Assembly: GCA_964599405.1 (NCBI GenBank)
Contig: CAZRED010000003.1
Span: 1 to 62,124 of the forward strand
DNA: 62,124 nt
Direction of reading: 5' to 3'
Source of the DNA: an uncultured Candidatus Saccharibacteria bacterium
GTDB taxonomy: Bacteria; Patescibacteriota; UBA1384; 2-12-FULL-50-11
Shown: positions 8,390-56,236 of the stretch, one piece after another
How positions within the stretch are numbered: position 1 is the first letter of the stretch
Layout: each line of letters begins with the position of its first letter
Notes under the pieces: generated by a model
Told to the model about the DNA's origin: nothing
The model's input: only the letters and a program-made list of their open reading frames with translations
Databases searched by the model: none
Translations under genes and position numbers: made by a program

Positions 8390-9167
8390 GACACCAAAAG
8401 TATTTTATTCATCGTATAGCCAAACCCAGCGATCGATTTCGGGCGGGTCAACTATGTCGCCGGGGCAATTTCGCCAGTTGCTAATTGTGGCAATTATTAT
8501 TATCGGCGGATATTTTCTAACCCGTTTACCGGTTTTCCAAATAAAGACCGTAACAATTACTGGAACTGATGACCCGGCGTTAATTGGCGAGCTCAATAGT
8601 TTGGTCGGTTACTCAATTCTTTCGGCCAGCGTCACCCAAAAGGTTCAAGAAGTTAGCCAAGCCCATCCGGAGCTAGAAAAGTTAGATTGTATTAAGGGCA
8701 TTCCCGACACCCTGCGCTGCGTGGCGGAGTTGCGCCAAGCGTTGCTAGGCTGGCGGACTAATGGCCAAACCTACTTACTTGACCAACACGGTGTTGCCTA
8801 CCAACAAACTACTAGCCCGGCGGTGCTGGTGGTGGAGGACCGTAAAAACGTTGTCGTTGCCCTGGGCGACCGACCAATTAGTAGCGAAGTGCTGGATGTC
8901 TATCGGGTCCTTCAAAGTGGGCTTACGGCTAACGGCTACGTCGTTGATAAATTTTTTGTGAACACCTCTGTCTTACATGCCGGCGTAGTCGTTAGCAGTC
9001 GCGCAGTGGGATTGCCATTTCCTGCTAACCCTATTGAACTGGAGTTTTCGCTAAGCTACCCAGTATCAATTCAAATCAGCACCCTCAATAAGTTACTAGA
9101 ATCCAAGAGCGGCCAAATTGGCTTACGTGTCGATTTGCGCACGCCTGGCTACCTATACTACAAATAG
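8379..9167 (+). CDS. FtsQ/DivIB-like cell division protein
   Basis: N-terminal TM then FQIKTVTITG POTRA-like start; C-terminal VDLR motif; position at end of dcw cluster. Confidence 0.7.
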   Translation: MARRTPKVFYSSYSQTQRSISGGSTMSPGQFRQLLIVAIIIIGGYFLTRLPVFQIKTVTITGTDDPALIGELNSLVGYSILSASVTQKVQEVSQAHPELEKLDCIKGIPDTLRCVAELRQALLGWRTNGQTYLLDQHGVAYQQTTSPAVLVVEDRKNVVVALGDRPISSEVLDVYRVLQSGLTANGYVVDKFFVNTSVLHAGVVVSSRAVGLPFPANPIELEFSLSYPVSIQISTLNKLLESKSGQIGLRVDLRTPGYLYYK

Positions 9168-35710: not shown

Positions 35711-36822
35711 TGCGCCGTTTCTTTAACCTACCGATCGACTGGTTTGCGCTACTGGTGCCGATTGTCATTTCGGCTACCGGCATTATCACAATTTTCACCA
35801 TCACCTATCAAGAGCATGGCTATCGTCTCGCCATCGATCAAAGCGTCTTTTTCTTGCTAGGTCTGGGGGCGTTGGCGTATTTTATGTTTAGCGACTACCG
35901 TTCGCTGCAAGCCTACAGCAAGGTTATTTATTTCGTCGGTATTCTGCTGTTGGTTCCGCTGCTGCCGCTGATTGCTCAAAACGTGTCATTTATCCCAAAG
36001 GTTTTTGGTGCTCACCGTTGGTTGGATTTTGGTTTTTTCCAACTCCAACCGGCGGAAATTTTCAAGCTGATTGCAGCGATTGTTGGTGCGAGCATTCTCT
36101 CAAAACAAATTGGCCGGGTTAACCTAAAAACCATTGGGTTTTATATTGCTGTTGCCGCCATACCGCTTTCGATGGTCCTGTTTCAGCCAGATCTTGGCAC
36201 CACTGCCCTGCTTTTTACAATTTTTTTAGTAATTTTCTTTGCTGGCCGTCCCTCTTGGCGGGTAATTATAGTTTTTCTGGTTGGCCTAGCGGTATTGGCG
36301 GGGCTTGTTTACTCCAACCTCCAGCCCTATCAGCGCAACCGCATTGAAACTTTCCTTAACCCTGCTTCCGACCCGTTAGGGGAAGGCTACAATGTCCGCC
36401 AGTCGCTGATTGCCGTCGGTAGTGGCGGATTAGTTGGGCGAGGCTTTGGGCAGGGTTCACAGACGGTGCTAAATTTTCTACCAGTGCCGCACGCCGATTT
36501 TATCTACGCCGGTTACGCCGAGGCCACTGGCTTCATTGGCTCGTTTATTCTATTACTGCTCTACACTGTGCTGATTTTTAGGGCACTGGCAATTGCCCGG
36601 GATTCCACTGACCCATTCGGTCAGTTACTAGCGATTGGAATTGCCACCAAATTCTTTATCCAGTCAGCTGTGCACATTGGTATGAACGTCGGTTTATTGC
36701 CAGTCACCGGTATTCCATTGCCGTTTATGTCATACGGCGGCACGGCGTTGATTGTGGATATGGCGGCGGTGGGGATACTCCAGAGTATTGCCATTCGCCA
36801 CAAGCGCGTGGTTTTTGGCTAA
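35710..36822 (+). CDS. rodA: SEDS rod shape-determining protein RodA
   Basis: LQPAEIFK, QPDLGT, QRNRIETFLNP..DPLGEGYN, HADFI, LPFMSYGG. Confidence 0.92.
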   Translation: MRRFFNLPIDWFALLVPIVISATGIITIFTITYQEHGYRLAIDQSVFFLLGLGALAYFMFSDYRSLQAYSKVIYFVGILLLVPLLPLIAQNVSFIPKVFGAHRWLDFGFFQLQPAEIFKLIAAIVGASILSKQIGRVNLKTIGFYIAVAAIPLSMVLFQPDLGTTALLFTIFLVIFFAGRPSWRVIIVFLVGLAVLAGLVYSNLQPYQRNRIETFLNPASDPLGEGYNVRQSLIAVGSGGLVGRGFGQGSQTVLNFLPVPHADFIYAGYAEATGFIGSFILLLLYTVLIFRALAIARDSTDPFGQLLAIGIATKFFIQSAVHIGMNVGLLPVTGIPLPFMSYGGTALIVDMAAVGILQSIAIRHKRVVFG

Positions 36823-36827
36823 GTACG

Positions 36828-36856
36828 TTGACGTTTCCTGGTATTTTTCGTACAAT
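36828..36856 (+). promoter_or_regulatory. sigma70 promoter of rplU-secE-nusG-rplK
   Basis: TTGACG-17 bp-TACAAT. Confidence 0.75.
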
Positions 36857-36868
36857 ATTCTCTGTTAC

Positions 36869-37231
36869 ATGAGCGAAGCAACCCCTAAAACAATGTTGGT
36901 AATTGAAGTCGGCGGCAAGCAACACTTGGCTGGTGTTGGCAGTAAGCTAGTAATTAGTGGTGTAACTGCCAAAGAAGGCGAGACTATTACCGCCAAAGAT
37001 TTATTAACTAATAAGGAAGTTTCACTCAAAGTACTTAAGGATTTTCTCGGTGAAAAAATTCACGGATTGAAATTCAAAAACAAAGTTCGCTACACCCGTC
37101 GCTACGGCCACCGCCAGCAAATGGCGTTAGTCGAAGTTGCTGGGTCAGCTGCTAAAGCGGTGAAACCAGCCGTAAAAGCCAAGCCAACGGTCAAACCAGC
37201 TGTTAAAAAAGCCAAGGTGGTTAAGAAATGA
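36869..37231 (+). CDS. rplU: 50S ribosomal protein bL21 with Lys/Ala-rich tail
   Basis: VIEVGGKQH, KFKNKVRYTRRYGHRQ; start moved to ATG 36869. Confidence 0.92.
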   Translation: MSEATPKTMLVIEVGGKQHLAGVGSKLVISGVTAKEGETITAKDLLTNKEVSLKVLKDFLGEKIHGLKFKNKVRYTRRYGHRQQMALVEVAGSAAKAVKPAVKAKPTVKPAVKKAKVVKK

Positions 37232-37404
37232 TTAGCTACTTTCGTTCTGTTATTGAGGAAGGAAAAAAAGTTGTTTGGCCAACCCGTCAAACGATCGTTC
37301 GCCACACCGCTATGGTCACTATAAGCGTTATCATTGCTGCTGCCATTTTTGCCAGTGTTGATTACGGCTTCCAGCAATTGGTACTGGCCAGCTTAACAAA
37401 GTAA
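37228..37404 (+). CDS. secE: preprotein translocase SecE (not in ORF track, 58 aa)
   Basis: MISYFRSVIEEGKKVVWPTR, single TM, VDYG; directly before nusG. Confidence 0.93.
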   Translation: MISYFRSVIEEGKKVVWPTRQTIVRHTAMVTISVIIAAAIFASVDYGFQQLVLASLTK

Positions 37405-37406
37405 CG

Positions 37407-37988
37407 ATGGCGGACATTGATTTAAAAACTACCGAAGACAGCCAAGAAGACGCCCGCCAATCCGGTAAGGGCGGTTGGTATGTTATCCACACCTACGCCG
37501 GTTACGAAGACCAAGTATCGGAGAATATTAAACAACGCGCCGAAAATCTGAAGCTGAAAGACTTCATCTTCGACGTTGTGGTTCCTAAAGAAAAACAGGT
37601 AGAAATTCGTAATGGCAAACGGAGGATTGTTGAGAAGCGCAGTTTCCCGGGTTACGTTTTTGTTAATATGATTGTTACCGACGAGTCATGGTACGTTGTT
37701 CGCAACACCCCTAGTGTCACCGGATTTTTGGGCAGCGGCGTTCGCCCAACCCCCATTCCCCAGTCAGAGATTGATGCAATTAAAGTTAAGATGGCTCGTG
37801 ACGAACCGGAGCATACAATCGACTTACAAATTGACGACCTAGTCCGGATTAACGATGGTCCGCTTAAGGGTTACGAAGGCAAGATTACTGTCGTCGATCA
37901 TGCCAAGGGGAAGATTAAAGTCTCCGTTTCAATGTTTGGCCGCGAAACTCCGGTCAATTTAGACTTTTTACAAGTTAAAAAAATGTAA
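37407..37988 (+). CDS. nusG: transcription factor NusG
   Basis: [38 protein letters not shown]. Confidence 0.97.
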
Positions 37989-37990
37989 TC

Positions 37991-38416
37991 ATGGCCAAAA
38001 AAGTAAAAATAGTAATTAAGCTTCAAGCCCCAGCCGGTAAAGCCACGCCCGGTCAGCAGATTGGTACAGCGCTCGGACCGCACGGCGTTAATATGATGGA
38101 GTTCATTACCCAGTTTAACGAGCGCACTAAAGCGATGGGCGACACCGTTATTCCGGTGGAGCTGACAGTCTACGAAGATCGAACATTTAGTTTTGTCACC
38201 AAAACTCCGCCCGCCGCTATTCAGCTGCTGAAGGCCGCCGGTTTGGAGAAGGGCTCACAGACACCGCGTAAAGAAAAAGTTGGCAAAGTCACCAAAGCCC
38301 AGATTACTGCTATTGCCGAGAACAAGATGGTGGACTTAAATGCCCGCACCATTGAGCAAGCCTCCAAAATCATTGAAGGCACCGCCAAGTCAATGGGCAT
38401 TGATATTGTTGGCTGA
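37991..38416 (+). CDS. rplK: 50S ribosomal protein uL11
   Basis: [24 protein letters not shown]. Confidence 0.97.
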
Positions 38417-38680
38417 AGCCAACAAAACACTTCTCACAGTGTCTACGACACTGTTCGCAGTCGACATTGCAAATAAGTAACGAAAAAGCCGGACGTAAAC
38501 GCCCGGCCTTTCCTAATCCCTCACTGCTGATCGACACCTGCATAAAGCAAATTTTTCCCGGCCGAACTTTACGGGGCCAGGGGTGGCGAAGCAGGAAGGT
38601 GCCAAAACTCCATATATATAATGAAGCACTGACAGCTGCCTACTCGACAAGCTTGGGAAAAATACCATACCCTAAAGATA

Positions 38681-39805
38681 ATGTCAATAGCAAGCGGGGT
38701 ACCAGCGTCGCTAAGTGGGGGTAATCCGCCCACTATACCCAAACAGCACTTTTTCGATATTGCTCCCGAGCAAATTGCCGCGTTAGCGGCGGTTGACGTG
38801 ATAGGTCCGGCCGCCTGGACGAAAATTCGCCAACACTTTCCTAGTTTGAGTAATTTTCTGAAAACGCCCCAGTCGGCTCTGGCGGGTATTCTTAACCAGT
38901 CACAATTTGCTGGGCTCCGCCTCCGCCAAAGTGCCATCGCTATCCCGAAAACGATGGCGTTAATTACTCTTGACGATCAGCGCTACCCAGCGCTCCTTCG
39001 GGAAGTTAACGATCCGCCGCTTTGGTTGTTTTTCATGGGAAACCACAAAGTATTAACCGGCAAGACTTTAGCCGTGGTTGGTAGTCGCAAACACAGCTCG
39101 TATGCCAGTGAGGCGATTGAACAACTCCTTCCCGACCCAATCGCCAAGAACCTTATTATTATTTCTGGATTGGCATATGGCATTGATAAATTAGCTCACC
39201 AACGCTGCATCGCTGCCGGCGGCAAGACCGTCGCCGTGTTAGCGTGTGGACTGGACAGAATATACCCATCAAACCACGAACAGTTGGCTAAAAAAATCGT
39301 TGAAACTGGCGGCGCGTTGATTAGCGAATATCCGCCTGGCTCGCCAGCGCTACCGTTTAAGTTTCCCATTCGCAACCGCATTATCGCCGGGCTGTCGCGT
39401 GCGACGTTGGTGGTGGAGGCGGCGGTTAAATCTGGCACGATGATAACTGCGCGGAGCACGATTGATTACAATCGCGAACTGTTTGTCGTGCCAGGCGACA
39501 TCACCCGCACCACCAGCGAAGGCTGCAATTATTTAATTGCTCAAGGGGCTACACCACTAATTACCCCAGTGCAGCTGAAGCATTTTTTCAGTATTTTGCT
39601 CAAACGTCGTGTCCCAATTCTTGACCAACCCAGTAGTGAGCTTGTAGACTTACTGGCCAGGCAACCTCGTCGTATTGACCAACTCGTTGCTGATACGGGA
39701 CAATCAGTCGAGGTTGTCTTACAGAAATTGACGGAGCTGGAATTAGCTGGCACCGTTTATCAAGTCCGCCCAGGGATATACCAAACAAAGAAAAAACATG
39801 TCTAA
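38681..39805 (+). CDS. dprA: DNA-protecting protein DprA
   Basis: AVVGSRK, ISGLAYGID, FPIRNRIIAGLS, VEAAVKSGTMITA, C-terminal wHTH. Confidence 0.95.
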   Translation: MSIASGVPASLSGGNPPTIPKQHFFDIAPEQIAALAAVDVIGPAAWTKIRQHFPSLSNFLKTPQSALAGILNQSQFAGLRLRQSAIAIPKTMALITLDDQRYPALLREVNDPPLWLFFMGNHKVLTGKTLAVVGSRKHSSYASEAIEQLLPDPIAKNLIIISGLAYGIDKLAHQRCIAAGGKTVAVLACGLDRIYPSNHEQLAKKIVETGGALISEYPPGSPALPFKFPIRNRIIAGLSRATLVVEAAVKSGTMITARSTIDYNRELFVVPGDITRTTSEGCNYLIAQGATPLITPVQLKHFFSILLKRRVPILDQPSSELVDLLARQPRRIDQLVADTGQSVEVVLQKLTELELAGTVYQVRPGIYQTKKKHV

Positions 39806-42038
39806 GAAAAAACTCGTCATCGTTGAATCGCCGGCCAAAGCCAAAACAATTGGTCAATATTTGGGTGAAGAGTTCGTGGTAAAGGCCTCGTTTGGCCATG
39901 TTCGCGACCTTCCCAAAAACAAACTCGGTATTGATACCGATAAACATTTTGAGGTTACTTACCAGAATATTCCCAAAGCCAAAAGAATTTTAGACGAATT
40001 AAAAAAAGAACTCTCGGCCAGTAGCGAGCTTTACTTAGCGCCGGATCCAGATCGCGAAGGGGAGGCCATTGCTTGGCATTTAGTCCAAGCTCTCAAACCG
40101 AAAGTCCCAATTCACCGGATTAGTTTCACCGAAATCACCAAGCCGGCCGTTCAGCACGCAGTCGAACATCCCCGGAAAATTTCTCAAGAACTTGTTGATG
40201 CCCAGCAAGCCCGGCGCATCCTGGACCGGTTAGTTGGCTACAAATTATCACCGCTGCTGTGGAAAAAAGTTTATCGTGGTCTGTCAGCCGGTCGGGTCCA
40301 GTCGGTGGCAGTACGGCTAGTGGTTGAGCGCGAACGGGAGATTAAGGCTTTCAAGGCGCGCGAGTTCTGGACAATCTCTGCTGATTTTGCCGCCATGGCT
40401 GGCAGCTTCAGCGCCTATATTACCAAACCGGGTTCTACCGGAAAGCTGGAATTTGCCACCAAAGCGGAAGTCGACAAAGCGGTTAACGCCCTAAAATCCG
40501 CCGACTTTTTGATGGACAATATCGAAACTACTACTTCCCAGCTTAAGCCGTTGGCGCCGCTAATTACCTCGACGCTTCAACAAAACGCCGCCCGTTATTT
40601 TGGCTTTAGTGCCAAACGGACAATGAAAGTGGCTCAAGACCTTTACGAGGGTATTGATGTGGTGGGCAAGGGGACGGTCGGCTTAATCACCTATATGCGT
40701 ACCGATTCTCACAACATCTCCGATATTGCTAAAAAAGAAGCTAACGAGGTAATTGCTAAGAATTTTGGCGCTAAGTACTTGCCGAACACCCCCAATATTT
40801 TCTCTAAAAAAGTCAAAGGCGCTCAAGAAGCTCACGAAGCGATTCGGCCAACCCACTTCGCTCTCAAGCCGAGCGATATTAAAGACCAATTATCACCCGA
40901 TCAACTGAAAATTTACTCTCTGGTTTACAACACCGCTACCGCCTCCCAAATGGCACCAGCCGACGTGGAGACTGTCACGGCCACAGTTGTCGGCGGTAAG
41001 CAGCAGCTAATTGCTCGTGGTCGCACCCTGGTATTCGACGGCTTTTTAGCGCAATTACCAGTGGATGGTGAGCGTTTCGAACCACTGCCAAAACTGACTG
41101 AAAAAGAAAAATTGAAATTAAAGAAAGTTATTGATGAGGCTCATACTACCGAGCCGCCTGCCCGCTACTCCGAAGCCTCGCTAGTGCGGGAGTTGGAGAA
41201 GCGGGGCATTGGCCGGCCCAGCACCTACGCGCCGATTATGTCGACGATTGTCGACCGTGGCTATGTTACCAAACAAACTGGCCGATTTTTCCCGGAGGAA
41301 GTAGCCGGCATAGTTATCGATCTGCTTGTTGAAAATTTCCCGTCAATTGTTGATTACGACTTCACTGCCCAAATGGAAGACCAGCTCGACGAAATTGCTG
41401 AAGGCCACAAAGAGCTGGAGCCGGTGTTGCGGGATTTCTATTTACCGTTTGCGGCGCTGTTGGCCGAAAAAGAAAAAACTATTGAGAAAAAAACCGTCAT
41501 TGAAGAAACCGACAAAATTTGCCCGAAGTGCAGTAAGCCGGTGGTGATTAAGATGGGCCGGTTCGGGAAGTTCTACGCTTGCAGTGGTTTTCCGGATTGT
41601 AATTACTCCGCGCCGATTATTGCCGAAGGCGACAAAAAAATCGCCGAAGAAGTGGCGGAGGAGATTAAAGATCCTTGTCCCGAGTGCGGGCACGCCTTGG
41701 AAGCCAAACAGAGCCGGTTCGGCTCGTTTATCGGCTGCTCTAATTATCCCAAATGCAAATTCACCAAATCCATTAAAATTGGCTCCGGCGTGATGTGTCC
41801 GAACTGCGGAAAAGAGCTAGTGCGCAAGAACACCCGCAAAGGCAAAGTTTTCTGGGGCTGCTCCGGCTACCCCAGCTGTAAAACCGCGTTCTGGGACGAG
41901 CCGACAAATGAAAAATGCCCAGATTGCAGCAGCTTGCTAGTGAAGAAGAAATCCGGCATTGCCTGTAGCCAGTGTAACTTCAAAAAGGCCGAAGAGCCGG
42001 CTGGCGCTGGTAATGCGGAAACGTTACAAGGTAAGTAA
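39798..42038 (+). CDS. topA: DNA topoisomerase I
   Basis: IVESPAKAKTI, DPDREGEAI, SAGRVQS, ITYMRTD, AHEAIRPT, four C-terminal zinc ribbons. Confidence 0.98.
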   Translation: MSKKKLVIVESPAKAKTIGQYLGEEFVVKASFGHVRDLPKNKLGIDTDKHFEVTYQNIPKAKRILDELKKELSASSELYLAPDPDREGEAIAWHLVQALKPKVPIHRISFTEITKPAVQHAVEHPRKISQELVDAQQARRILDRLVGYKLSPLLWKKVYRGLSAGRVQSVAVRLVVEREREIKAFKAREFWTISADFAAMAGSFSAYITKPGSTGKLEFATKAEVDKAVNALKSADFLMDNIETTTSQLKPLAPLITSTLQQNAARYFGFSAKRTMKVAQDLYEGIDVVGKGTVGLITYMRTDSHNISDIAKKEANEVIAKNFGAKYLPNTPNIFSKKVKGAQEAHEAIRPTHFALKPSDIKDQLSPDQLKIYSLVYNTATASQMAPADVETVTATVVGGKQQLIARGRTLVFDGFLAQLPVDGERFEPLPKLTEKEKLKLKKVIDEAHTTEPPARYSEASLVRELEKRGIGRPSTYAPIMSTIVDRGYVTKQTGRFFPEEVAGIVIDLLVENFPSIVDYDFTAQMEDQLDEIAEGHKELEPVLRDFYLPFAALLAEKEKTIEKKTVIEETDKICPKCSKPVVIKMGRFGKFYACSGFPDCNYSAPIIAEGDKKIAEEVAEEIKDPCPECGHALEAKQSRFGSFIGCSNYPKCKFTKSIKIGSGVMCPNCGKELVRKNTRKGKVFWGCSGYPSCKTAFWDEPTNEKCPDCSSLLVKKKSGIACSQCNFKKAEEPAGAGNAETLQGK

Positions 42039-42667
42039 TGCGCAACATCCTACCAAAATCCGTTCAGTTGCTTGCTGAAGTGTTGGGGACACTCCCGGGC
42101 GTAGGGCCAAAGACTGCCAACCGCCTAACTTTTTACTTACTAAGCCGTTCCGACGATGAGCTGAAAAAGTTCGGTGAAGCCTTTTTGAAGCTGCGCGAAA
42201 ATCTTACTAGCTGTTCGTTGTGTCATATGGTCAGTGAGAGCGACCCCTGCCCGCTCTGTGCTGATGCTAAGCGCGAACAAGAAAAGTTGGCGGTAGTGGA
42301 AGAATCGCTGGATGTAGTGGCTATGGAGAAAGCCCACTTCACCGGGCGCTACCACGTGTTGGGTGGGCAAATTTCGCCAATTAACAACGTTGGCCCAACC
42401 GACTTAACTATTCACCAGCTACTCAAACGACTAGAAGCGGGGGAGATTAAAGAAGTAATATTAGCGACTGACCCATCGCTGGAAGGTGAAGCGACTGCCC
42501 TGTATATTGACGAGCAAGTTAGCGAGGCGCTGAAAACCGGTAAGATTGATGCCAAAATCAGTGTCACCCGCTTGGCGCGGGGACTGCCGGTGGGTGGGGA
42601 CTTAGAATACGCTGACGAGCTAACACTATCGCGGGCGCTCGAAGGCCGCCGCAGCTACAGAGATTAA
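42038..42667 (+). CDS. recR: recombination mediator RecR
   Basis: LPGVGPKTANRL, C4 finger, YHVLGG, EGEATA, RLARGLPVGGDLEYAD. Confidence 0.97.
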   Translation: MRNILPKSVQLLAEVLGTLPGVGPKTANRLTFYLLSRSDDELKKFGEAFLKLRENLTSCSLCHMVSESDPCPLCADAKREQEKLAVVEESLDVVAMEKAHFTGRYHVLGGQISPINNVGPTDLTIHQLLKRLEAGEIKEVILATDPSLEGEATALYIDEQVSEALKTGKIDAKISVTRLARGLPVGGDLEYADELTLSRALEGRRSYRD

Positions 42668-42750
42668 AATATATATTGTGGCTGGTACACCACTAAGCAA
42701 TCTCCTAGTTGCTATTGAATTGAAAATATTTTCGCTACAATTATTCAAAC

Positions 42751-43020
42751 ATGGAAGACAGTCAGCTATATATCTGCGAAGCCTGTGGCCAAACCACGCC
42801 AGTCATGGGCGATTCTTGCCCGAACTGCGGTGGGAAGCTGGTGAACTTCGACGGTAAAGAACACGAACCGGGCAAAGAGGAGTTGGAGAACGATAGTTTG
42901 AGCAGTGGCTTGACAGACACCGAAACTGGCACTCAGTCGCTGGAGGATCTAGCCAAAAAAGAGTTGGAAGAAGACGACGAAGACTACCGCGTTCACACCC
43001 TCGGCACTGAGGACGAGTGA
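42751..43020 (+). CDS. small zinc-ribbon protein with acidic tail
   Basis: CEACG..CPNCGG then D/E-rich region. Confidence 0.65.
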   Translation: MEDSQLYICEACGQTTPVMGDSCPNCGGKLVNFDGKEHEPGKEELENDSLSSGLTDTETGTQSLEDLAKKELEEDDEDYRVHTLGTEDE

Positions 43021-43034
43021 GGGCAGTACTAGTG

Positions 43035-43205
43035 GCTCGGGAATGTTTCTCTCGCGACTGTAGTTAATTTTACCGCTCGGGAAGTTTTTCGCAGCGACGT
43101 GCGCAGGCGATTTGCTGGGTTTCTGCGCAGCAGAAAAATCGCCGAGGAAGTAAGCGAGGAGCCCGCTGGAGGCGACGAGCGGTCGCGAGAGAAATCTTCC
43201 CGAGC
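43035..43205. repeat. MITE/REP-like element with 24-bp terminal inverted repeats
   Basis: gctcgggaatgtttctctcgcgac (43035-43058) vs gtcgcgagagaaatcttcccgagc (43182-43205), 22/24 complementary; homolog at 49591. Confidence 0.8.
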
Positions 43206-43252
43206 TGTTTCCCACTTTATGAATAAGAATAATTAAGTTACAAAGAAACAAG

Positions 43253-44587
43253 ATGCTTCAGATTTATAACACTCTTACTAGCCAGAAATCCGAATTCAAG
43301 CCAATTAAGGCCGGAGAGGTCTCAATGTACGTCTGTGGTCCGACAGTTTACGATTACGACCACGTTGGCCATGCCAGAACCTACTTAAGCTTCGACTTAC
43401 TTCACCGACTCTTGCGCCACCACGGTTTCACAGTGAACTACATTCAAAATATCACCGACGTCGGCCACCTGGTAAACGATGCAGAAGTCGGTGCCGATAA
43501 GGTTCAGAAAAGAGCAGCCGAAACAGGGCAAACGCCACGCCAAATTGCTGAGCATTTCACCGCTGCACACCTGGAAGACTTGAAAAAGCTCAATATCCTC
43601 CCACCTACCAATTTTCCCAAAGCGTCAGATCATATCAAGGAAATTCAGGACTTTATTGCGGGGTTAATTAACGCCGGAATAGCATATGTTACCAATCAAG
43701 GAAACGTTTACTTTGCTGTTTCGAAAGACCCGGATTACGGCAAGCTTAGCCACCGTAGTCTCACCGAACTCTTAACCGGTACTCGGGTAGATACGGCACC
43801 TGACAAGCGCTCTACTGCCGATTTTGCCCTGTGGAAGACCTCTCGGGTCAATGACCCAGAAATGACCTGGGATTCCCCCTGGGGCCGCGGTTATCCAGGT
43901 TGGCACATTGAATGCTCGGCTATGAGCCGCAAGTATCTAGGCGATACCTTTGACATACATGGTTCAGCCATTGAACACGTCTTTCCTCACCATGAGAACG
44001 AAATCGCCCAAACCGAGAGTTTAACCGGTAAGCAGATGGCTAATTACTGGGTACACAGTGGTATGTTAACCGTTGATGGCAAGAAAATGAGCAAATCCCT
44101 TCATAACCAGGTTAATGTTCAAGACGCTATGAAAGAATACTCAGCCAACGAAATTCGCCTAGCTTTCTTCCAAACCCACTACCGTAAACCCTTTGACTAC
44201 ACTAAGGAGGTAATGGAACAGGGTAAGGCGCTGCGTCGCAAGGTATTCCAAGCGTTACCATTTATGGCGGAAAGTGCAGGAGGGGAGTATCTAACAGAGA
44301 TAATCACCGCTTTATCTGACGATCTCGATACTCCAACGGCACTACACCTGTGGAACGAACACTTTAAAGAATTCGGTCAAAGGGAAACGCATATGCTATT
44401 TGAGCTATTGGGTATCCGTTACGTTGAGTTTGCTGACAACCCCCAGGCCCAGGAGTTAGCCAAGCAGCGCGATGATGCCCGGATCCGAAACGACTTTCTT
44501 ACTGCCGATAACCGTAAGGCCGAGATTCTGCAATTAGGCTTTGAAGCAGTTGATGCTTCTGACGGCACCAAGTTTGTACCGCGTTAA
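43253..44587 (+). CDS. cysS: cysteine--tRNA ligase
   Basis: [36 protein letters not shown]. Confidence 0.97.
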
Positions 44588-44604
44588 GAAATTGCCCTAC
44601 ACCC

Positions 44605-44633
44605 TTGACAGAATGAATAGTATATGCTATTAT
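44605..44633 (+). promoter_or_regulatory. sigma70 promoter heading the accessory island
   Basis: TTGACA-17 bp-TATTAT with extended -10 TG. Confidence 0.7.
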
Positions 44634-44910
44634 CCTGGCAACGAAGAAGAAGTCTTTTTCGCGCCCCTCAAAGAATATAGAAGTAAGCCACTTGTGGACC
44701 GCAACGGTAGTGCGGATGTTGAGTAATCGACGAAAACGCCGCAAGTGTTTTTTATTTCTTAAATTCAATGAAGGTTCCCGTTGTGGGACACGGCTGTGCG
44801 GATTGCGTCTAAAGAGCAATACCCCAAAAGCGGCCGGACCTTAACATCTTGTTCTCTCCAACGCGCCTACATTTATATATATGCAGGTGGGTTGGAGCGA
44901 ATTAACAACA

Positions 44911-45234
44911 ATGCAATTACGAATCACGCTAAACGGTAGCTCAGCAGCCCAGGCACTTGAGACCATTCGAAATCAAGGTGGTCGTTTTCTCTGGGTCACA
45001 CGTACACAAGAGAACGTCGAAACGATCGTTTACCAACTTCCGAACGGCAGGTTTTGCACGATCGGAACTGATCGGATCCCGTCATACGGTGGTCTCGGCG
45101 TTCACGGTGACCCCGAAAATCGTTCAAACGACCCGCTCGATGAATTGGCCGAAGAACTGATTTTTCAGCTCAAGACTCAGCAGGAAGCAGGCATCCCGAT
45201 TGGTCACGCTGTCGAAGATCTGGTGCTGGCATGA
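44911..45234 (+). CDS. hypothetical protein
   Basis: ORF; start moved to ATG 44911 just after hairpin module. Confidence 0.6.
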   Translation: MQLRITLNGSSAAQALETIRNQGGRFLWVTRTQENVETIVYQLPNGRFCTIGTDRIPSYGGLGVHGDPENRSNDPLDELAEELIFQLKTQQEAGIPIGHAVEDLVLA

Positions 45235-45321
45235 ACCACATTCGGCGACGCGCATTCGTGCGCGTCGCCCCTTCCAACCCCTTCACAGCTTGACGTTGTG
45301 GGCGGATTGGACGGAACAACA

Positions 45322-45699
45322 ATGGCAACAAAGAAAGACATCAATGTCGTTATCGTCAGAAAAGACGCATCGCGAGACTCGGTGATTAAAGCGGCTCATA
45401 AGGTTTTTGGGCCTACCAACAGTAGGATTCAAAGGACAATTGAGACAGCCCTTGACCATGGAACGGTCGTTGCGCTGGTTACCCTGGAGCATTTCCAGCT
45501 TGTTGTCTACACGAATCAGCTCCGGTCTTACGAGATGGAAATTGAATCCCTACAATACGTCTATGTATGCGAACACCCATGGTACGAAGAACGATTAGGA
45601 GAGTTCGGCAAAGCCGAAATGGCCAATCCGGAGACTACGATCAGGGAAGCCGTTGCGCTACAGTTCCAGGCGCACATTACTAAACAACCTAGCGGGTGA
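45322..45699 (+). CDS. hypothetical protein
   Basis: ORF; ATG 45322 follows hairpin module. Confidence 0.65.
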   Translation: MATKKDINVVIVRKDASRDSVIKAAHKVFGPTNSRIQRTIETALDHGTVVALVTLEHFQLVVYTNQLRSYEMEIESLQYVYVCEHPWYEERLGEFGKAEMANPETTIREAVALQFQAHITKQPSG

Positions 45700-45764
45700 C
45701 GGACACTGTCCGTCACCCCTTCCAACCCCTTCACAACTTCGGTTGTGGGTGGATTGGAGAAGAA

Positions 45765-46103
45765 ATGAAGCTCTTACGATACGAAGCAACTGTTTTTGTT
45801 GCACTAAAAGCCAGCCTTCTGGACACCCAAGGCAAGTCTGTCGAAAGATGCTTGCAGCAGAGACTTGGCTTCAAGTCGGTAAAGGGGCTAAGAATTGGTA
45901 AGCGAATTACGTTTACACTGAAGGCTGGCAATCGAAAAAATGCCGAGGCTGCAGTGAAGAAGATGTGCACCAAACTCCTTATCAACCCGGTTATTGAAAC
46001 GTACGAGTTCTCAATCGGTAGAGGTGTTCGTGAAAAAGCAAAGAAAAAAACGAAAAAAGGGTCAAAACCCCGAAATCGAAAACGTTCACGGCGTCATGCG
46101 TAA
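45765..46103 (+). CDS. purS: PurS-like protein with basic C-terminal tail
   Basis: VFVALKASLLDTQGKSV, LRIGKRITF, MCTKLLINPVIETYE match PurS pattern. Confidence 0.82.
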   Translation: MKLLRYEATVFVALKASLLDTQGKSVERCLQQRLGFKSVKGLRIGKRITFTLKAGNRKNAEAAVKKMCTKLLINPVIETYEFSIGRGVREKAKKKTKKGSKPRNRKRSRRHA

Positions 46104-46465
46104 AACAGGACCGATGAAACATCGGCTTGCCAAGCGCTGCAAACAACGCGAAAATAACTTCGATCGGCGTCAAGCCGACGAGTAACGACTTTCCAGCGCA
46201 CTCTACTCCTCCGCGGGACCCCCGCCCTGAACAAGGATAATAGGCTGTCGAGACCTGCAAGGGTCGTAAAACGCTTCGGCGGACGACAGATCTGAAGGGC
46301 GACACGGCTACGGCCGTGCGGGCAAGTCGAGCCCGGCCTTGGTTGCTGCCATGCTGGCAAAACACAAAGAGCGCGCGATCCGAGGGAGGTGGCAGGGCAT
46401 TAACGCCCCCACCTCCCTCATTCCAACCCCTCGACAACTTCGGTTGTCGGTGGATTGGAGCGAAA

Positions 46466-46684
46466 ATGAGATCAGAAGTAATCCAATCAATGACCGTGTT
46501 TTTCTTTGCAATAGGATCGGTGATGCTTCTCTTGGCGCTTTACTATATAGCGTTCAAAGATAAGCGAGCCGCGCTCCTGATTGAAATTGGCCTTTTGGCT
46601 ATTGTGAGCGTCCTACTCATGATACTTGGCGTGTTATTCGCCGTTTTTGACAGGTTATCACCTGTCGTTCCTATCTCGCAGTGA
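46466..46684 (+). CDS. small two-TM membrane protein (72 aa)
   Basis: two hydrophobic helices; ATG 46466 follows hairpin module. Confidence 0.65.
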   Translation: MRSEVIQSMTVFFFAIGSVMLLLALYYIAFKDKRAALLIEIGLLAIVSVLLMILGVLFAVFDRLSPVVPISQ

Positions 46685-46922
46685 GCCTTTCGCTCACTGC
46701 CTCCAACTTGCCCGCAACTTTTTCTACCGAATTGGTTGTGGGCAAATTGGAGAGATAAAACATTCTTATCAGTACTATCTCGGCTGGGACTAGGGAGAGT
46801 TGCCATCATCAGGAAGCTTGCTTCCTGCGGCAATTTCCCTCCTTCCCTCCTCCTGGCTGAGATTGTGCTGGTAAGAAAAATGTCAGCATGCCCCGTAACC
46901 GGGGCGGGTGAGAAACGTGAAG

Positions 46923-47849
46923 ATGAAACTCATAAGAATCCTAATCGTCACTATCGCCCTGCTCATGGCAATTACTGCCAATGCGGGGTCCTACAAGTTG
47001 AAGTATGAGAGCAAAGGACAGGTGTCCCTCGTTCTCATCGACCGGTCTCGTGGGCCGGAACTATCCTTTCAGGTTCTGCCGCTCACCGGCGATCACTCGC
47101 CAGGAGCAGCATTGGTTCGTCTCGATGGTCAACCAGTTTGGTTCACCACCGGCGGCGGATATCGTGGAAGCATCGTCATTCCCGAGAACGGGCACATCCC
47201 GGTCTTGAACAACGACGACCTGAAGCAGTTTGGGCAGTCGCAACCGAACGCCCAGCCAATCAAGGTTGACGAAGACTGGTTCTTACATGAGCACCAGATT
47301 GAAGTCTTCTTCTACGCCAATGACAGCAGGGGACGTCCTTCGAAGAACCACTCGGCGGCACCGGCGACGCAGTTTCGCATCGAGCGAGAAGCGCCGTTTA
47401 CGGCAGCCGTCACCAATGGTGGTGCGCCACTGTCCAGCAACCAACTCGACGCTGCCATCCGGCAGTCGTACGAGCAGGGTGTCGAAGATACCCGCAAGAC
47501 AGAGGCGCAGAATCTTGAAGAGCTGCACCGTCAACTGAAAAAGGCGACGGATGAGAATAACGAGCTACGACGTAAGTTGGCGCTCGGGTCATCTGGCGGT
47601 GGTGGTTCGCAAAACTCTGACTCGGTCATGGTCGAACGGTACATCCCGTTCGGCTTGGACAAAGCCGATCCACCGAAGGTCAACGACATGATGGTAATCG
47701 TCGACAGGAACACCGGTCGCTTCATCGCTGAAGCGAAGGTTGTCCAAGTTCTGGGTGGCTACGTTTGGACTAACTCCAAACTAACACCTCTTAATATGGA
47801 CTTCGGTTCCATCAAGCTGGTTCGCAAGACCCGCACGGAGAAAAACTGA
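46923..47849 (+). CDS. secreted hypothetical protein with coiled coil
   Basis: signal peptide MKLIRILIVTIALLMAITANA; coiled-coil segment. Confidence 0.75.
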   Translation: MKLIRILIVTIALLMAITANAGSYKLKYESKGQVSLVLIDRSRGPELSFQVLPLTGDHSPGAALVRLDGQPVWFTTGGGYRGSIVIPENGHIPVLNNDDLKQFGQSQPNAQPIKVDEDWFLHEHQIEVFFYANDSRGRPSKNHSAAPATQFRIEREAPFTAAVTNGGAPLSSNQLDAAIRQSYEQGVEDTRKTEAQNLEELHRQLKKATDENNELRRKLALGSSGGGGSQNSDSVMVERYIPFGLDKADPPKVNDMMVIVDRNTGRFIAEAKVVQVLGGYVWTNSKLTPLNMDFGSIKLVRKTRTEKN

Positions 47850-48751
47850 TGAAGACTCTAATCATAACGGCGCTTATCGCCGTACTCGTCGTTCTCTTTC
47901 CGCTGCGGGCTAACGCCCAAGGCGGGGGAGAGTACTTGGACTTGTCCAAAGACCAGTTCGTCCCAGGGGGACTGACTGGTGAAGGCATCTCAAAGGAGCT
48001 GTTGCCGGCTTTTGCTGGTTACGCTCCGAAAGAGAGCTCCCAAGAGTGCATAGTTCTTGCCTTCAACTACGACATCCCGAAGTTGCAGGTGGCGTTCAAG
48101 AAGGCAAGCGGGACGATCTACACCAAAGCCGAGCCCCTTCGTAAGGGCGAGAAGCTTGTGGCAACCATAAACTCCCGACGAAATCTCGGAGACTGCTGGG
48201 AGGTTAAGGCGGTTCCTCGTTGGCTTGTAGCTTGCGGGAACCCCTTGCCGTACCCAGTCGAGATTACTTTCTGGATCCCCAAGTGGGGAGAGAAGGAAGT
48301 AATCATCCAACGAGTGGAGATTCCGAAACCTTACGCAGTCACTGTGAAGGAAGGGATCGTTATCCAGCAGCTTGTCCCGAGCCTTCGGGACATTGAGTTG
48401 GTTCTCCCTCCCACTGAGAAAGGCAAGTACTCACTCGTCGTTACCGGCCATGAAGAAGCAGGGCGACGCTGGGTTTACGAGAAGGATTTCTGGGACAAGT
48501 TCCTAGACTTTCTTCGGGTTGTGGCGATGCCGATCGGACAGATCCTTAGGCGCGCCGACAACATCAAAATCACTGCCAACGGTGGCAGCGGTTATGGTGC
48601 AGCAGCGGCTGCAGCGGCCGCTTCTTCCTCTTCGTCGTCGACTGCAGTCACACCGACATCCGGTGCCGGAACATCTGGTTCGGGTGGAGCTGGTGCTGGC
48701 GGAGCAGCTGGCGGCGGAGGTGGCGGCGAAACCTATCGGTTTGCGATCTAG
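47849..48751 (+). CDS. secreted hypothetical protein with Ala/Ser/Gly-rich C-terminus
   Basis: signal peptide MKTLIITALIAVLVVLFPLRANA; AAAAAAASSSSSS tract. Confidence 0.75.
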   Translation: MKTLIITALIAVLVVLFPLRANAQGGGEYLDLSKDQFVPGGLTGEGISKELLPAFAGYAPKESSQECIVLAFNYDIPKLQVAFKKASGTIYTKAEPLRKGEKLVATINSRRNLGDCWEVKAVPRWLVACGNPLPYPVEITFWIPKWGEKEVIIQRVEIPKPYAVTVKEGIVIQQLVPSLRDIELVLPPTEKGKYSLVVTGHEEAGRRWVYEKDFWDKFLDFLRVVAMPIGQILRRADNIKITANGGSGYGAAAAAAAASSSSSSTAVTPTSGAGTSGSGGAGAGGAAGGGGGGETYRFAI

Positions 48752-48780
48752 CCAAACTAGATCCAACCAACTATCCTAAT

Positions 48781-48806
48781 GGCCGAGACACGCAAGTGTC
48801 TCGGCC
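48781..48806 (+). other. perfect GNRA-capped hairpin (no U-tract)
   Basis: ggccgagacac-gcaa-gtgtctcggcc. Confidence 0.7.
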
Positions 48807-48888
48807 CATTCCATACCTAACTAATAGTGCGCAAGCACAGGTCGAATTGGTTGGGAATGTAGATGAAAAATTAAAGGAGAAATATATA

Positions 48889-49509
48889 ATGAATAAAATT
48901 ATTGTTTCATTGTTTGGCGCCCTCTTGGCTGCTGGTTTTGCCGGTTCAGTCTATGCTGCGTCAACAAGCTCAAGCTCTACAAGCTCAACCACCTCTGCCG
49001 TTGTTATCAGCGGCTCTGGCGGTGCGGCTGCTTCGAGCGGTGCTGCAGGTGGAGCTTCGGCTTCAGCTGGTAACGGCGCTGCTTCTGCAGCTGCTTCGAG
49101 CTCGTCTTCGAGCGCAGCTGTTGCCGTCAGCGGTAACGGCGGCTCGGCTGGTGCCGGTTCATCCGGTTCTGGTTCGAGTTCGTCTGGTTCTGGTGCTTCT
49201 GGCTCGTCCGCGAGCTCTAGCTCTAGTTCCGCCGCTGTTGCTACCGTTTCAAACGGTGGTAAAACGGTAACGAAAACTGCTTCTTGCCCGAACGCTTCGG
49301 CCGCTGCTTCTGCAGCTGCTGCAGCTGCTTCGAGCGCAAGTTCCAGCGCTGCTGCTGCCGCTAAGGCCAGCTGCGTTGCGGCTACCAAAACCACGGCTCT
49401 GCCGAAGGCTGGTGCCGAAGTTGCTTTACTGCCGGGCGCGTTAACGGCCTTTTCGGTCGCTTTTCGCCGCTATCTATCGGCTCGTAAAGAAGCTGCTTTG
49501 TTTGCCTAA
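48889..49509 (+). CDS. Ser/Ala/Gly-rich surface protein with LPxTG-like C-terminal signal
   Basis: AAGGAG RBS, signal peptide, poly-S/A tracts, LPKAG + hydrophobic + RRYLSARK. Confidence 0.78.
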   Translation: MNKIIVSLFGALLAAGFAGSVYAASTSSSSTSSTTSAVVISGSGGAAASSGAAGGASASAGNGAASAAASSSSSSAAVAVSGNGGSAGAGSSGSGSSSSGSGASGSSASSSSSSAAVATVSNGGKTVTKTASCPNASAAASAAAAAASSASSSAAAAAKASCVAATKTTALPKAGAEVALLPGALTAFSVAFRRYLSARKEAALFA

Positions 49510-49526: not shown

Positions 49527-49556
49527 TAGACCCCGTGCAAACGGGGTCTTTTTTGT
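49527..49556 (+). terminator. intrinsic terminator
   Basis: agaccccgt-gcaa-acggggtct followed by T-tract. Confidence 0.85.
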
Positions 49557-49590
49557 TACCTAAAAATTCTATACTGCGGAAACAAAATTA

Positions 49591-53798: not shown

Positions 53799-53822
53799 GG
53801 ATATGTGTTTAAACACATATCC
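53799..53822. repeat. perfect 24-bp palindrome (GTTTAAAC family copy 1)
   Basis: ggatatgtgtttaaacacatatcc. Confidence 0.9.
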
Positions 53823-55720: not shown

Positions 55721-55748
55721 GAAAGTATGTGTTTAAACACATACTTTC
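55721..55748. repeat. perfect 28-bp palindrome (GTTTAAAC family copy 2)
   Basis: gaaagtatgtgtttaaacacatactttc. Confidence 0.9.
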
Positions 55749-56210: not shown

Positions 56211-56236
56211 AGAGTATGTGTTTAAACACATACTCT
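56211..56236. repeat. perfect 26-bp palindrome (GTTTAAAC family copy 3)
   Basis: agagtatgtgtttaaacacatactct. Confidence 0.9.

Follow-up and report, generated by a model that had tools for sequence, protein, structure and literature searches.

What is the role of a hairpin module that returns between one small gene and the next when the genes themselves are unrelated? The question is raised by an array of co-oriented open reading frames (ORFs) lying directly downstream of cysS in a 62 kb stretch of a Patescibacteria (candidate phyla radiation, CPR) chromosome, the whole of which is called the window below. A preliminary description of this DNA compared the array with integron cassettes and offered, as its other option, an array-wide RNA signal for processing or translation. 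The explanation we favour, with moderate confidence, is that the two hairpins of the module, h1 and h2, are cis-acting intercistronic RNA elements which make the message more stable or insulate it and which hide the Shine-Dalgarno (SD) sequence, within a polycistronic RNA under the control of an attenuator, and that the repeated modules serve as footholds for recombination.

The hairpins of the array are as follows.

44856-44897, plus strand: h2 copy c0, CUCCAAC GCGCCUACAU...AUGCAGGUGG GUUGGAG, diverged, folding z = -5.5
45244-45269, plus strand: h1a, perfect GC-rich hairpin of 11 bp, 9 nt after the stop codon of ORF A
45273-45311, plus strand: h2 copy c1, 60.3 bits with the covariance model
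45694-45718, plus strand: h1b, perfect hairpin of 11 bp, overlapping the stop codon of ORF B
45721-45759, plus strand: h2 copy c2, 69.7 bits
46382-46419, plus strand: h1c, long GC-rich hairpin GAGGGAGGUGG...CCACCUCCCUC, orthologous to GGAGGUGG...CCACCUCC of the related locus L028
46422-46460, plus strand: h2 copy c3, 65.4 bits
46678-46700, plus strand: h1d, perfect hairpin of 9 bp, overlapping the stop codon of ORF D
46701-46752, plus strand: h2 copy c4, terminal and diverged, z = -9.2, loop with conserved CUACCGA

The four h1 hairpins are GC-rich, perfect or nearly so, and lie at or just past stop codons. Hairpins of the h2 type (CUCCAAC…GUUGGAG) occur in five copies, four of them preceded by h1 at a distance of 0-3 nt, and h1 and h2 together span 70-90 nt. 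The pattern TCCAA-N20-50-TTGGAG has seven matches against 1.08 expected, a number reached in none of 100 shuffles; one of the seven, at 11632, is unrelated and lies within a gene. Each intergenic segment folds at z of -4.6 to -9.2 relative to shuffles; a scan for strong local folds across the whole window proved too unspecific to help. All these elements lie where the preliminary description had placed them, including the diverged copies at 44856 and 46701 with their differing interiors, and the row of unrelated small genes punctuated by the module behind one promoter is a genuine array. The hairpins at the stop codons, which had been called variable, are present, but they form a loose family, GGYGA...UCRCC, conserved at orthologous positions of relatives. 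None of them qualifies as an intrinsic terminator, h1a to h1d being followed by CC(U)UCC and none by a U-tract.

Covariation supports the folded forms. The exchange of CACAAC/GUUGUG for GACAAC/GUUGUC and the G-U pair at 45288, both noted earlier, are correct. Among h2 hairpins of the c1-c3 type 95% of alignment cells are paired, a share that falls to 35-51% once the partners are slid, and where c2 has a UUCG loop its orthologue in L027 has GAAA. The interior of c0 differs in L031, L033, L034 and L035 yet remains complementary. An alignment of c4 (A7) comprises 21 pairs, 91.7% of them paired and 12 changed on both sides, and none of 500 shuffles scored as high. Identities among c1 to c3, examined for orthology versus concerted evolution, range from 72 to 91% without clear pattern; c4 is probably the ancestral h2 copy. 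When a covariance model (R1) was run over 190,607 bases (the window and nine further loci), its matches fell inside arrays only, a result limited by the lack of a complete genome of these organisms.

Relatives were obtained as cysS neighbourhoods, fetched via CysS homologues 68-86% identical to the CysS of the window. The orthologue of h1a is retained in L026, L027 and L028, even where the gene upstream of it is a different one. Between the window and L027, at dS > 2, h1 plus c4 is 90% identical, the leader 79% and the coding DNA of cysS 76%; the noncoding scaffold is thus as conserved as cysS coding DNA or more so.

One feature survives all sequence turnover of h2. Its closing sequences vary between arrays (CUCCUCA/UGAGGAG, CUUCCAC/GUGGAGG and CUUCCGAAG/CUCGGAAG in others), and CUYC...GGAG is always kept: a 5´ CUCC or CUUCC pairs with a 3´ GGAG or GGAGG situated 4-13 nt before a start codon. 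The GGAG of c0 stands 13 nt ahead of the ATG of ORF A, and that of c2 and c3 stands 5 nt ahead of the ATG of the PurS gene and of ORF D; c1 offers GGAC plus GGAA 5 nt from the ATG of ORF B, and no ORF follows c4. Over nine arrays, at least 75% of the SD-like motif lies inside the 3´ arm of a hairpin at 25 of 36 ORF starts, and the mean unpaired probability of array SDs is 0.20. The segment from -60 to +3 folds at -26.2 kcal/mol for ORF A, -20.5 for B, -18.5 for PurS and -22.6 for D, compared with a mean of -11.3 (sd 4.5, minimum -18.4) kcal/mol for 40 housekeeping genes of the window.

The genes between these hairpins, and one further stretch, are listed here.

44911-45234, plus strand: ORF A, 107 amino acids, unknown family, ratio of nonsynonymous to synonymous substitution rates (dN/dS) 0.22-0.29
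45322-45699, plus strand: ORF B, 125 amino acids, unknown
45765-46103, plus strand: PurS-family gene, Pfam PF02700 at E = 2.4e-25, NCBIfam NF004630 and TIGR00302 above cut-offs
46030-46185, plus strand: sb, an uncalled, highly basic ORF of 51 amino acids with GTG start and GAGG as SD, in a different frame from the PurS gene, whose 3´ end it overlaps
46186-46380, plus strand: structured noncoding stretch (z = -5.9 over 46100-46470), homologous to L026 12095-12300 and L028 12396-12610
46466-46684, plus strand: ORF D, hydrophobic two-helix peptide of 72 amino acids, 53 with the shorter start of a public gene caller

Amino acid identity between window and L027 is 34% for A, 31% for B and 39% for PurS, with dN/dS of 0.2-0.3, so the array ORFs are under purifying selection despite their fast divergence. 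ORF A has only four other clusters at 50% identity among 1.8 billion representative proteins, and by phmmer it is nearer to the first gene of L040 (E = 2.8e-18) than to its counterparts in L027 and L026 (E about 1e-5), whose CysS is 83-85% identical. Its AlphaFold2 model, built from four sequences, has a mean pLDDT (predicted local distance difference test) of 54, too poor for a fold search. The cluster search also yielded P0126, a protein of 399 amino acids in which six tandem repeats resemble the conserved core of ORF A (NWFTIGTDRTDGQGFWG vs CTIGTDRIPSYGG). For ORF B a word-based search gave no homologue; it is distantly homologous to B´ of L027 (about 30-31% identity, E = 3.5e-5). The PurS gene stands alone, with neither purL nor purQ in the window, and its L027 orthologue of 93 amino acids is about 39-40% identical although CysS is 83% identical. 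In the slot of ORF D, L027 has an unrelated hydrophobic peptide of 32 amino acids.

The 362-nt gap after the PurS gene accommodates sb and the structured stretch. Between window and L027, sb is the best conserved ORF of the array: it is kept in L027 (12705-12851, about 68-72% identity, E = 1e-21) and in L040 (2681-2830, E = 4e-10), with dN/dS of 0.25 and the conserved motif ...VM(R/K)K(T/S)G(P/V)MKHR...R...Q(R/K)E..., and public gene calls miss it at all three loci. A word-based search retrieved no homologues. The sb protein is a candidate RNA-binding partner of the hairpins. The basic tail of PurS had suggested an RNA-binding fusion, which we rejected, the tail being read-through into the overlapping sb frame and absent from PurS of L027. 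The noncoding stretch itself could be either a ghost (decayed) cassette or a noncoding RNA domain.

The transcript to which the modules belong is delimited by the following features.

44605-44633, plus strand: sigma-70-type promoter TTGACA-17-TATTAT with extended -10 TG, 11/12 match
44640-44758, plus strand: leader domain 1, branched structure of about 110 nt right after the promoter, closing stem kept in seven loci
44770-44855, plus strand: leader domain 2 motif, CGGCUGUG...UAAnGAG...CAAAGCGGCCG...CCUUAACAUCUUGUUCUCUCC, in 11 loci
46765-46875, plus strand: conserved 110-nt ('giant') hairpin just upstream of gene E, folding z = -11.6
46923-47849, 47849-48751 and 48889-49509, plus strand: genes E, F and G, co-transcribed downstream of the array
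49528-49549 (also given to 49555), plus strand: intrinsic terminator closing the operon, AGACCCCGUGCAAACGGGGUCU followed by U6, the U-tract coming after the stem

The promoter named in the preliminary description is borne out as the best and sole strong site within 7.5 kb, and nine cysS-linked relatives keep it as TTGAC(A/T)...ATATGCTA(A/T)T(A/G)T. True intrinsic terminators within the locus are found at 44739-44753 and 49528-49555. With a single strong promoter, a single terminator (at 49528) and no U-tract behind any h1, the region makes up one operon. The array, present from 44605 to 46760 as reported, does not stop there, and the operon runs on to 49528-49549.

Leader domain 1 is closed by CACUUGUGG (44689-44697) pairing with CCGCAAGUG (44739-44747), with U6 at 44748-44753. 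This stem of 8 bp is retained in seven loci, with two covarying pairs and a U-tract after it in all; the domain of relatives is likewise branched, closed by CACUUGUG/CGCAAGUG with the U-tract next to it, and the inner hairpin loop CGGUAG is conserved across seven cysS-linked arrays. Judged by its form, domain 1 is a terminator- or attenuator-like, riboswitch-like element, and it has no Rfam match. Domain 2 occupies the 5´ end of all arrays examined, 11 loci that include L043 and L040, the latter linked to uvrC/uvrA; its invariant part is UUAACA..U..U..UCC, and its P1 stem has 6 bp and two covarying pairs.

After c4, the giant hairpin takes the place of an ORF. Its alignment (A6) holds 45 pairs, 96.7% paired, with 12 compensatory pairs and five invariant G-U pairs, and none of 500 shuffles scored as high. 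The plus strand is more stable by 14 kcal/mol on average, and the core, CUCGGCUGGGAUUAGGGAGAG...UUUCCCUCCUUCCCUCUUCCUGGCUGAG, is nearly invariant in six genomes. An ORF spanning the hairpin was considered and rejected; an indel between window and L027 breaks its frame, so the hairpin is RNA and not coding. It lies 50-90 nt upstream of gene E, and the CCCUCCU of its unpaired internal loop, identical to the anti-Shine-Dalgarno sequence, could pair with the SD of that gene.

The same architecture was found in at least ten related Patescibacteria loci and at least two genomic contexts. In all cysS-linked loci the promoter, leader domains 1 and 2 and an initial h2 precede a stretch that varies, and this is followed by a closing h2 of c4 type, the 110-nt hairpin, genes E, F and G, and the release-factor gene. 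The number of ORFs between the conserved flanks is 0, 1, 2, 4-5, about 6 or about 11 (the last in L040, outside the cysS context); the cysS-linked arrays, with CysS identity to the window, are as follows.

Window, reference: four ORF units with five ORFs
L026, CysS 85%: one ORF, then a well-formed extra h2 and noncoding stretch
L027, CysS 83%: four ORF units with five ORFs
L028 and L029, CysS 79%: content as in L026
L033, CysS 71%: about six ORFs, h2 sequences quite different
L034, CysS 68%: two ORFs
L035, L036, L038 and L039, CysS 68%: no ORF, a single h2 composed of the c0 5´ flank with the c4 loop (CUACCGA) and 3´ flank

Evidently, gene content and order are not fixed among relatives. The first slot of L028 is occupied by an unrelated gene of 218 amino acids, with c0 before it and h1a and c1 after it still homologous to those of L026, which amounts to an ORF-precise replacement. 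Two of the four other clusters of ORF A led to further arrays. The one in L040 is located between a UvrC-like gene (assigned by eye from its N-terminus) and uvrA (by Pfam); it has its own promoter, the domain 2 motif, about 11 small ORFs including the uncalled sb homologue, and h1+h2 modules of a related family, CCUUCCACAGAGC...GUUGUGUGGAGG, and it closes in a terminator without E, F and G. In L043 the array starts right after a terminator, carries the leader motif and has its A homologue in the third or fourth slot. The second gene of L034 is homologous to the fifth of L040 by phmmer. With A, sb and this last family in differing slots and contexts, ORF families move between slots and loci. 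Some of the loci are copies of one another, L040, L041 and L042 being identical in DNA and L035, L036, L038 and L039 sharing the same empty array, and window positions 35765-49256 recur at 100% identity in L011, a public Logan contig.

Some observations on single relatives may be added. The c0 of L030 is a chimera: its flank is that of c0 and its interior is of c1 type, and the contig breaks off at this point. L026, L030 and L031, metagenomic contigs from close relatives, all end inside the array or its hairpins, which may reflect assembly breaks induced by repeats or strain heterogeneity. In L033, within the array of small genes, positions 8513-8647 match the Rfam model of transfer-messenger RNA (tmRNA) over 135 nt at 58.8 bits (gathering threshold 47), with no call by ARAGORN; the match covers the two ends of the model only, that is, a tRNA-like domain without tag region, and the fragment may be an integration scar or remnant.

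From these data we propose the following course of events. Transcription would start at the 44605 promoter, pass the terminator-like domain 1, where attenuation might act, then domain 2, and enter the array. Each h1 would work as a 3´-end barrier or insulator of its cistron, not as a terminator. The 5´ arm of h2 (CUCC or CUUCC) pairs with the GGAG or GGAGG of the next ORF, and with its SD held in this way each cistron would by default be closed to translation and shielded from those beside it. To open h2, a factor acting in trans would then be needed; a helicase, an endonuclease that cuts the stem, or a partner RNA or protein are examples. The modules are also dispersed direct repeats, and recombination between them, within or between arrays, could lead to loss, replacement and reshuffling of ORFs, which would explain how the RNA scaffold is conserved while genes turn over. 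Known SD-sequestering elements, such as ROSE and fourU thermometers or the operator hairpins of RNA phages, likewise place a ribosome-binding site in the 3´ arm of a hairpin; h2 differs from them in being far more stable (-18 to -25 kcal/mol), in standing before every array gene, in its coupling to h1 and in having no Rfam match.

The logic of recombination footholds is that of the PeSL (early promoter and stem-loop) cassettes of T4-type phages, in which small ORFan genes of hyperplastic regions are bordered by short conserved stem-loop motifs, relatives differ by insertions, deletions and replacements that end in the motifs, and mini-circles have been shown (Arbiol et al. 2010, PMC2839356; Comeau et al. 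2014, PMC4122927). The ORF-precise swap between conserved flanks in L028 and L026 resembles theirs. PeSL, however, joins a sigma-70 early promoter to a working terminator stem-loop in each unit and resides in phages, whereas the modules described here contain no promoter-like site and no U-tract after h1, bury the ribosome-binding site and sit in a housekeeping chromosome.

A number of points weigh against the explanation by insulating and SD-occluding RNA modules. The whole analysis, this explanation included, is computational. The preference of h1+h2 modules for the plus strand, 1.65 kcal/mol (Wilcoxon p = 0.03, n = 29), is weak. An h2 of -18 to -25 kcal/mol would, according to the folding energies, nearly abolish initiation, so that a releasing factor must exist. 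Translational coupling via h1 was considered and rejected: masking 13-20 nt past the stop codon left the SD unpaired at 0.17-0.22, compared with 0.20 unmasked, and a terminating ribosome therefore does not free the SD in thermodynamic modelling. Both c4 and the lone h2 of L035 precede no ORF, and SD occlusion is thus not the sole role of h2. An arrangement of N genes with N+1 hairpins behind a conserved leader is also expected of a site-specific insertion system. Finally, dS between window and L027 is above 2 and saturated, all differences in content being between old lineages, so no special mechanism is required to account for them, and contigs from different samples with the same array-linked protein gave no sign of a recent event or of polymorphism within populations.

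The demand for an activation step leads to a possible, if rather unlikely, alternative, which refines the RNA explanation instead of opposing it and is the most economical idea for how h2 is opened. An RNase III-like endoribonuclease, specific for double strands or for hairpins, would cut h2, or the coaxially stacked h1 and h2, releasing monocistronic RNAs that end in a protective 3´ h1 hairpin and begin with an unmasked SD. Such processing agrees with the stems of 15-21 bp found between every cistron, which are irregular and carry conserved 1x1 internal loops, with the gap of only 0-3 nt between h1 and h2, and with the complete burial of the SD, which calls for some activation; it also accommodates the retention of h2 without a following ORF (c4, L035) better than a purely translational role does. 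On the other hand, canonical RNase III would call for longer stems than those of c1 to c3, which have two mismatches in about 17 bp; the arrays have no linked nuclease gene; and the interiors of h2 differ so widely between arrays as to argue against a sequence-specific nuclease. Early genes of phage T7 are separated by RNase III sites in the form of looped, irregular intercistronic hairpins; the 3´ hairpin left by cleavage stabilises the upstream RNA, and cleavage can unmask a ribosome-binding site. The irregular intercistronic hairpins are alike in the two systems, but the module described here has no sequence similarity to the T7 sites, shorter stems and two parts.

The other question is whether h2 acts as DNA. 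An unlikely answer is a new gene-capture system specific to Patescibacteria, in which h2 would be the attachment site of a recombinase or nucleic-acid-guided enzyme encoded elsewhere and the leader motif an insertion end comparable to attI. Each insertion at h2 would add one h2; ORFs would be captured, shuffled and exchanged between loci, the same hairpins working as translational locks in the transcript. The ratio of N ORF units to N+1 h2 copies, the single composite c0/c4 hairpin of the empty L035, the leader motif at the 5´ end of all 11 arrays, the differing contexts of arrays (cysS-prfA, uvrC/uvrA, after a terminator), the ORF families in different slots with A of the window nearer to L040 than to close relatives, the near match of window-type h2 ends to the attC boxes given below, and the three contigs that end inside the array all fit this proposal.

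The array also shares several traits with integron arrays and with clusters of attC sites lacking integron-integrases (CALINs): promoterless, co-oriented, unrelated small ORFs behind one promoter, an imperfect palindrome between ORFs, an ORF number varying among relatives, a conserved element at the promoter-proximal end, and CTCCAAC/GTTGGAG ends resembling the attC boxes RYYYAAC/GTTRRRY, which the ends of c0 match at six of seven positions each. The resemblance does not extend further. Copies c1 to c4 end in ATTGGAG, losing the G of GTT, and the h2 ends of other arrays (CTCCTCA/TGAGGAG, CTTCCAC/GTGGAGG, CTTCCGAAG/CTCGGAAG) contain no AAC/GTT. Integron attC sites measure 57-141 nt and have inverted inner boxes, extrahelical bases and conserved AAC/GTT, whereas h2 hairpins measure 39-65 nt (39-40 nt for c1-c3), their half-sites are direct repeats (TCCAAC-CCCTT-CACAAC, that is, CCAAC...ACAAC), their irregularities are symmetric 1x1 mismatches (C.A, C.U) and not extrahelical bases or bulges, and the core is unconserved. 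Moreover, unlike in integrons, the unit includes a second hairpin, h1, the SD lies within the stem, and G-U pairs favour the transcript strand. As stated in the preliminary description, IntI is absent from the window ORFs of at least 100 amino acids; searches for Phage_integrase and other recombinase domains gave no match in these ORFs, nor in the genes called up to about 10 kb from the array in eight relatives. A CALIN lacks IntI by definition, so the absence of IntI alone does not exclude one. Taken together, the comparison with integrons that had first been put forward is not supported, and by these sequence features the array fails as a member of that class.

A capture system independent of integrons meets difficulties of its own. 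No integrase, transposase or other recombinase is encoded in the window or the flanks of relatives. The AAC/GTT triplets are not conserved between arrays while the pairing of CUCC...GGAG with the SD is; the G-U bias indicates RNA; only the ORF is swapped between L028 and L026, a pattern not expected of a cassette that brings its own site along; and all differences separate genomes whose dS is saturated. Where contigs of separate samples encode one and the same array-linked protein, their array DNA is identical or their array equally empty, and no polymorphism was seen. Between the two options first offered, the array-wide RNA signal is the better supported, by the SD pairing, the G-U strand bias and the UUCG/GAAA loop swap.

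It is improbable that the modules serve processive antitermination or anti-polarity, the paired hairpins and/or the leader acting on RNA polymerase to let transcription traverse a long terminator-like region with little translation and reach E, F and G. The put RNAs of phage HK022 are two-stem structures, and here, too, two adjacent stems 0-3 nt apart recur along the operon; the terminator-like leader must be read through, occluded SDs would otherwise invite Rho-dependent polarity, and arrays of the cysS-linked type have E, F and G downstream of them. But the array of L040 ends in a terminator without E, F and G, and the interiors of modules are not conserved in sequence between arrays as those of put RNAs are.

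Two further classes of repeats can be set aside. CRISPR (clustered regularly interspaced short palindromic repeats), with its repeats of 24-48 nt and unique spacers about as long, accompanied by cas genes or a leader, does not agree with intervals of 300-700 bp that contain ORFs under purifying selection, and Pfam revealed no cas genes. Repetitive extragenic palindromic (REP) sequences and bacterial interspersed mosaic elements (BIMEs) are, like h1 and h2, imperfect intergenic palindromes after stop codons in operons and can stabilise upstream mRNA, but REPs are spread genome-wide in hundreds of copies and linked to RAYT (REP-associated tyrosine transposase), whereas the elements described here were seen only in arrays and contain the SD of the next gene. 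That they are selfish miniature repeats without host role, of REP/BIME type or akin to miniature inverted-repeat transposable elements (MITEs), is very improbable: they are palindromes in intergenic positions, in several copies whose termini agree and whose interiors vary, but they have no copy outside arrays in the 190 kb covered by R1, gave only chance matches in scans of genomes and metagenomes for the exact motif, are always placed precisely from stop codon to SD with the SD built into the stem, are strongly constrained at orthologous positions and are accompanied by no RAYT or transposase.

The scans just mentioned used the motif TCCAACCCCT-N12-26-GGYGGATTGGA and gave 10 matches in GTDB (185,579 species genomes), 14 in JGI metagenomes and none in IMG/VR; all of them lack the inner stem and are hence attributable to chance. 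Rfam at the gathering threshold identified only five tRNAs in the whole window, only weak sub-threshold matches of 14.7-22 bits in 44500-47000 at E up to 10, and only the tmRNA fragment in five related loci. No Rfam family thus covers the hairpins as a known element. The ensemble of leader domains, h1+h2, 110-nt hairpin with CCCUCCU loop and recurring sb has neither an Rfam match nor a description in the searchable literature, and we rate it among intercistronic SD-occluding hairpins combined with shuffling mediated by regulatory cassettes. A defence system was considered and rejected on the lack of any PADLOC match, and so was a viral origin, the leader motif and the core of the giant hairpin being absent from IMG/VR and PHROGs matching PurS only.

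Patescibacteria have small genomes with many unknown small proteins, and little is known on their regulation or diversification. Here the same design turns up at more than one chromosomal site, with another set of genes each time, its RNA scaffold kept more strongly than the proteins in between. If the modules act as RNA, the locus would add three or four structured motifs outside Rfam (leader domains 1 and 2, h1+h2 and the 110-nt hairpin) and offer a natural case of standardised intercistronic insulators. If they are cassette boundaries, an integron-like platform for gene capture would have been invented a second time, independently, as an analogue without homology. Either way, a hypervariable locus lies directly upstream of secreted or cell-wall-anchored proteins in episymbiotic bacteria, and a role as a site of interaction with the host or with phages is plausible.

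The proteins in question are those of E, F and G, for which no Pfam, NCBIfam or PADLOC family match was obtained. E and F carry signal peptides and no known domains. G is Ser/Ala-rich and of low complexity, and its C-terminal LPKAG, followed by a hydrophobic stretch and a basic tail, constitutes a sortase-type cell-wall sorting signal. The three genes are syntenic in L027, L028, L034 and L035; E and F of the clade of window and L027 have no detectable similarity to those of L028 and L035. The terminator closing this operon, together with its 3´ flank (49528-49560, GACCCCG...CGGGGUCUUUUUUGUUACCUAAA), recurs nearly verbatim just upstream of the L043 array (L043 1-35).

The remainder of the window consists of housekeeping genes. 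Among them are a mur/fts cluster, recJ, radA, a class A penicillin-binding protein gene, tyrS, argS and a type IV pilus cluster, further the genes for RNase H, ftsW, L21, secE, nusG, L11, dprA, topA and recR, and then cysS; the closest CysS proteins are annotated as belonging to Patescibacteria, Berkelbacteria or Saccharimonadales. On the 3´ side of the array region follow a gene for a peptide-chain release factor (RF-1/PCRF domains), ybaB, pth, L1, L10, L7/L12 and tgt. Downstream of L7/L12, in an AT-richer stretch of small genes of unknown function, a perfect palindrome with the core TATGTGTTTAAACACATA occurs in three copies (53799-53822, 55721-55748 and 56211-56236), which look like operator sites of a dimeric regulator.

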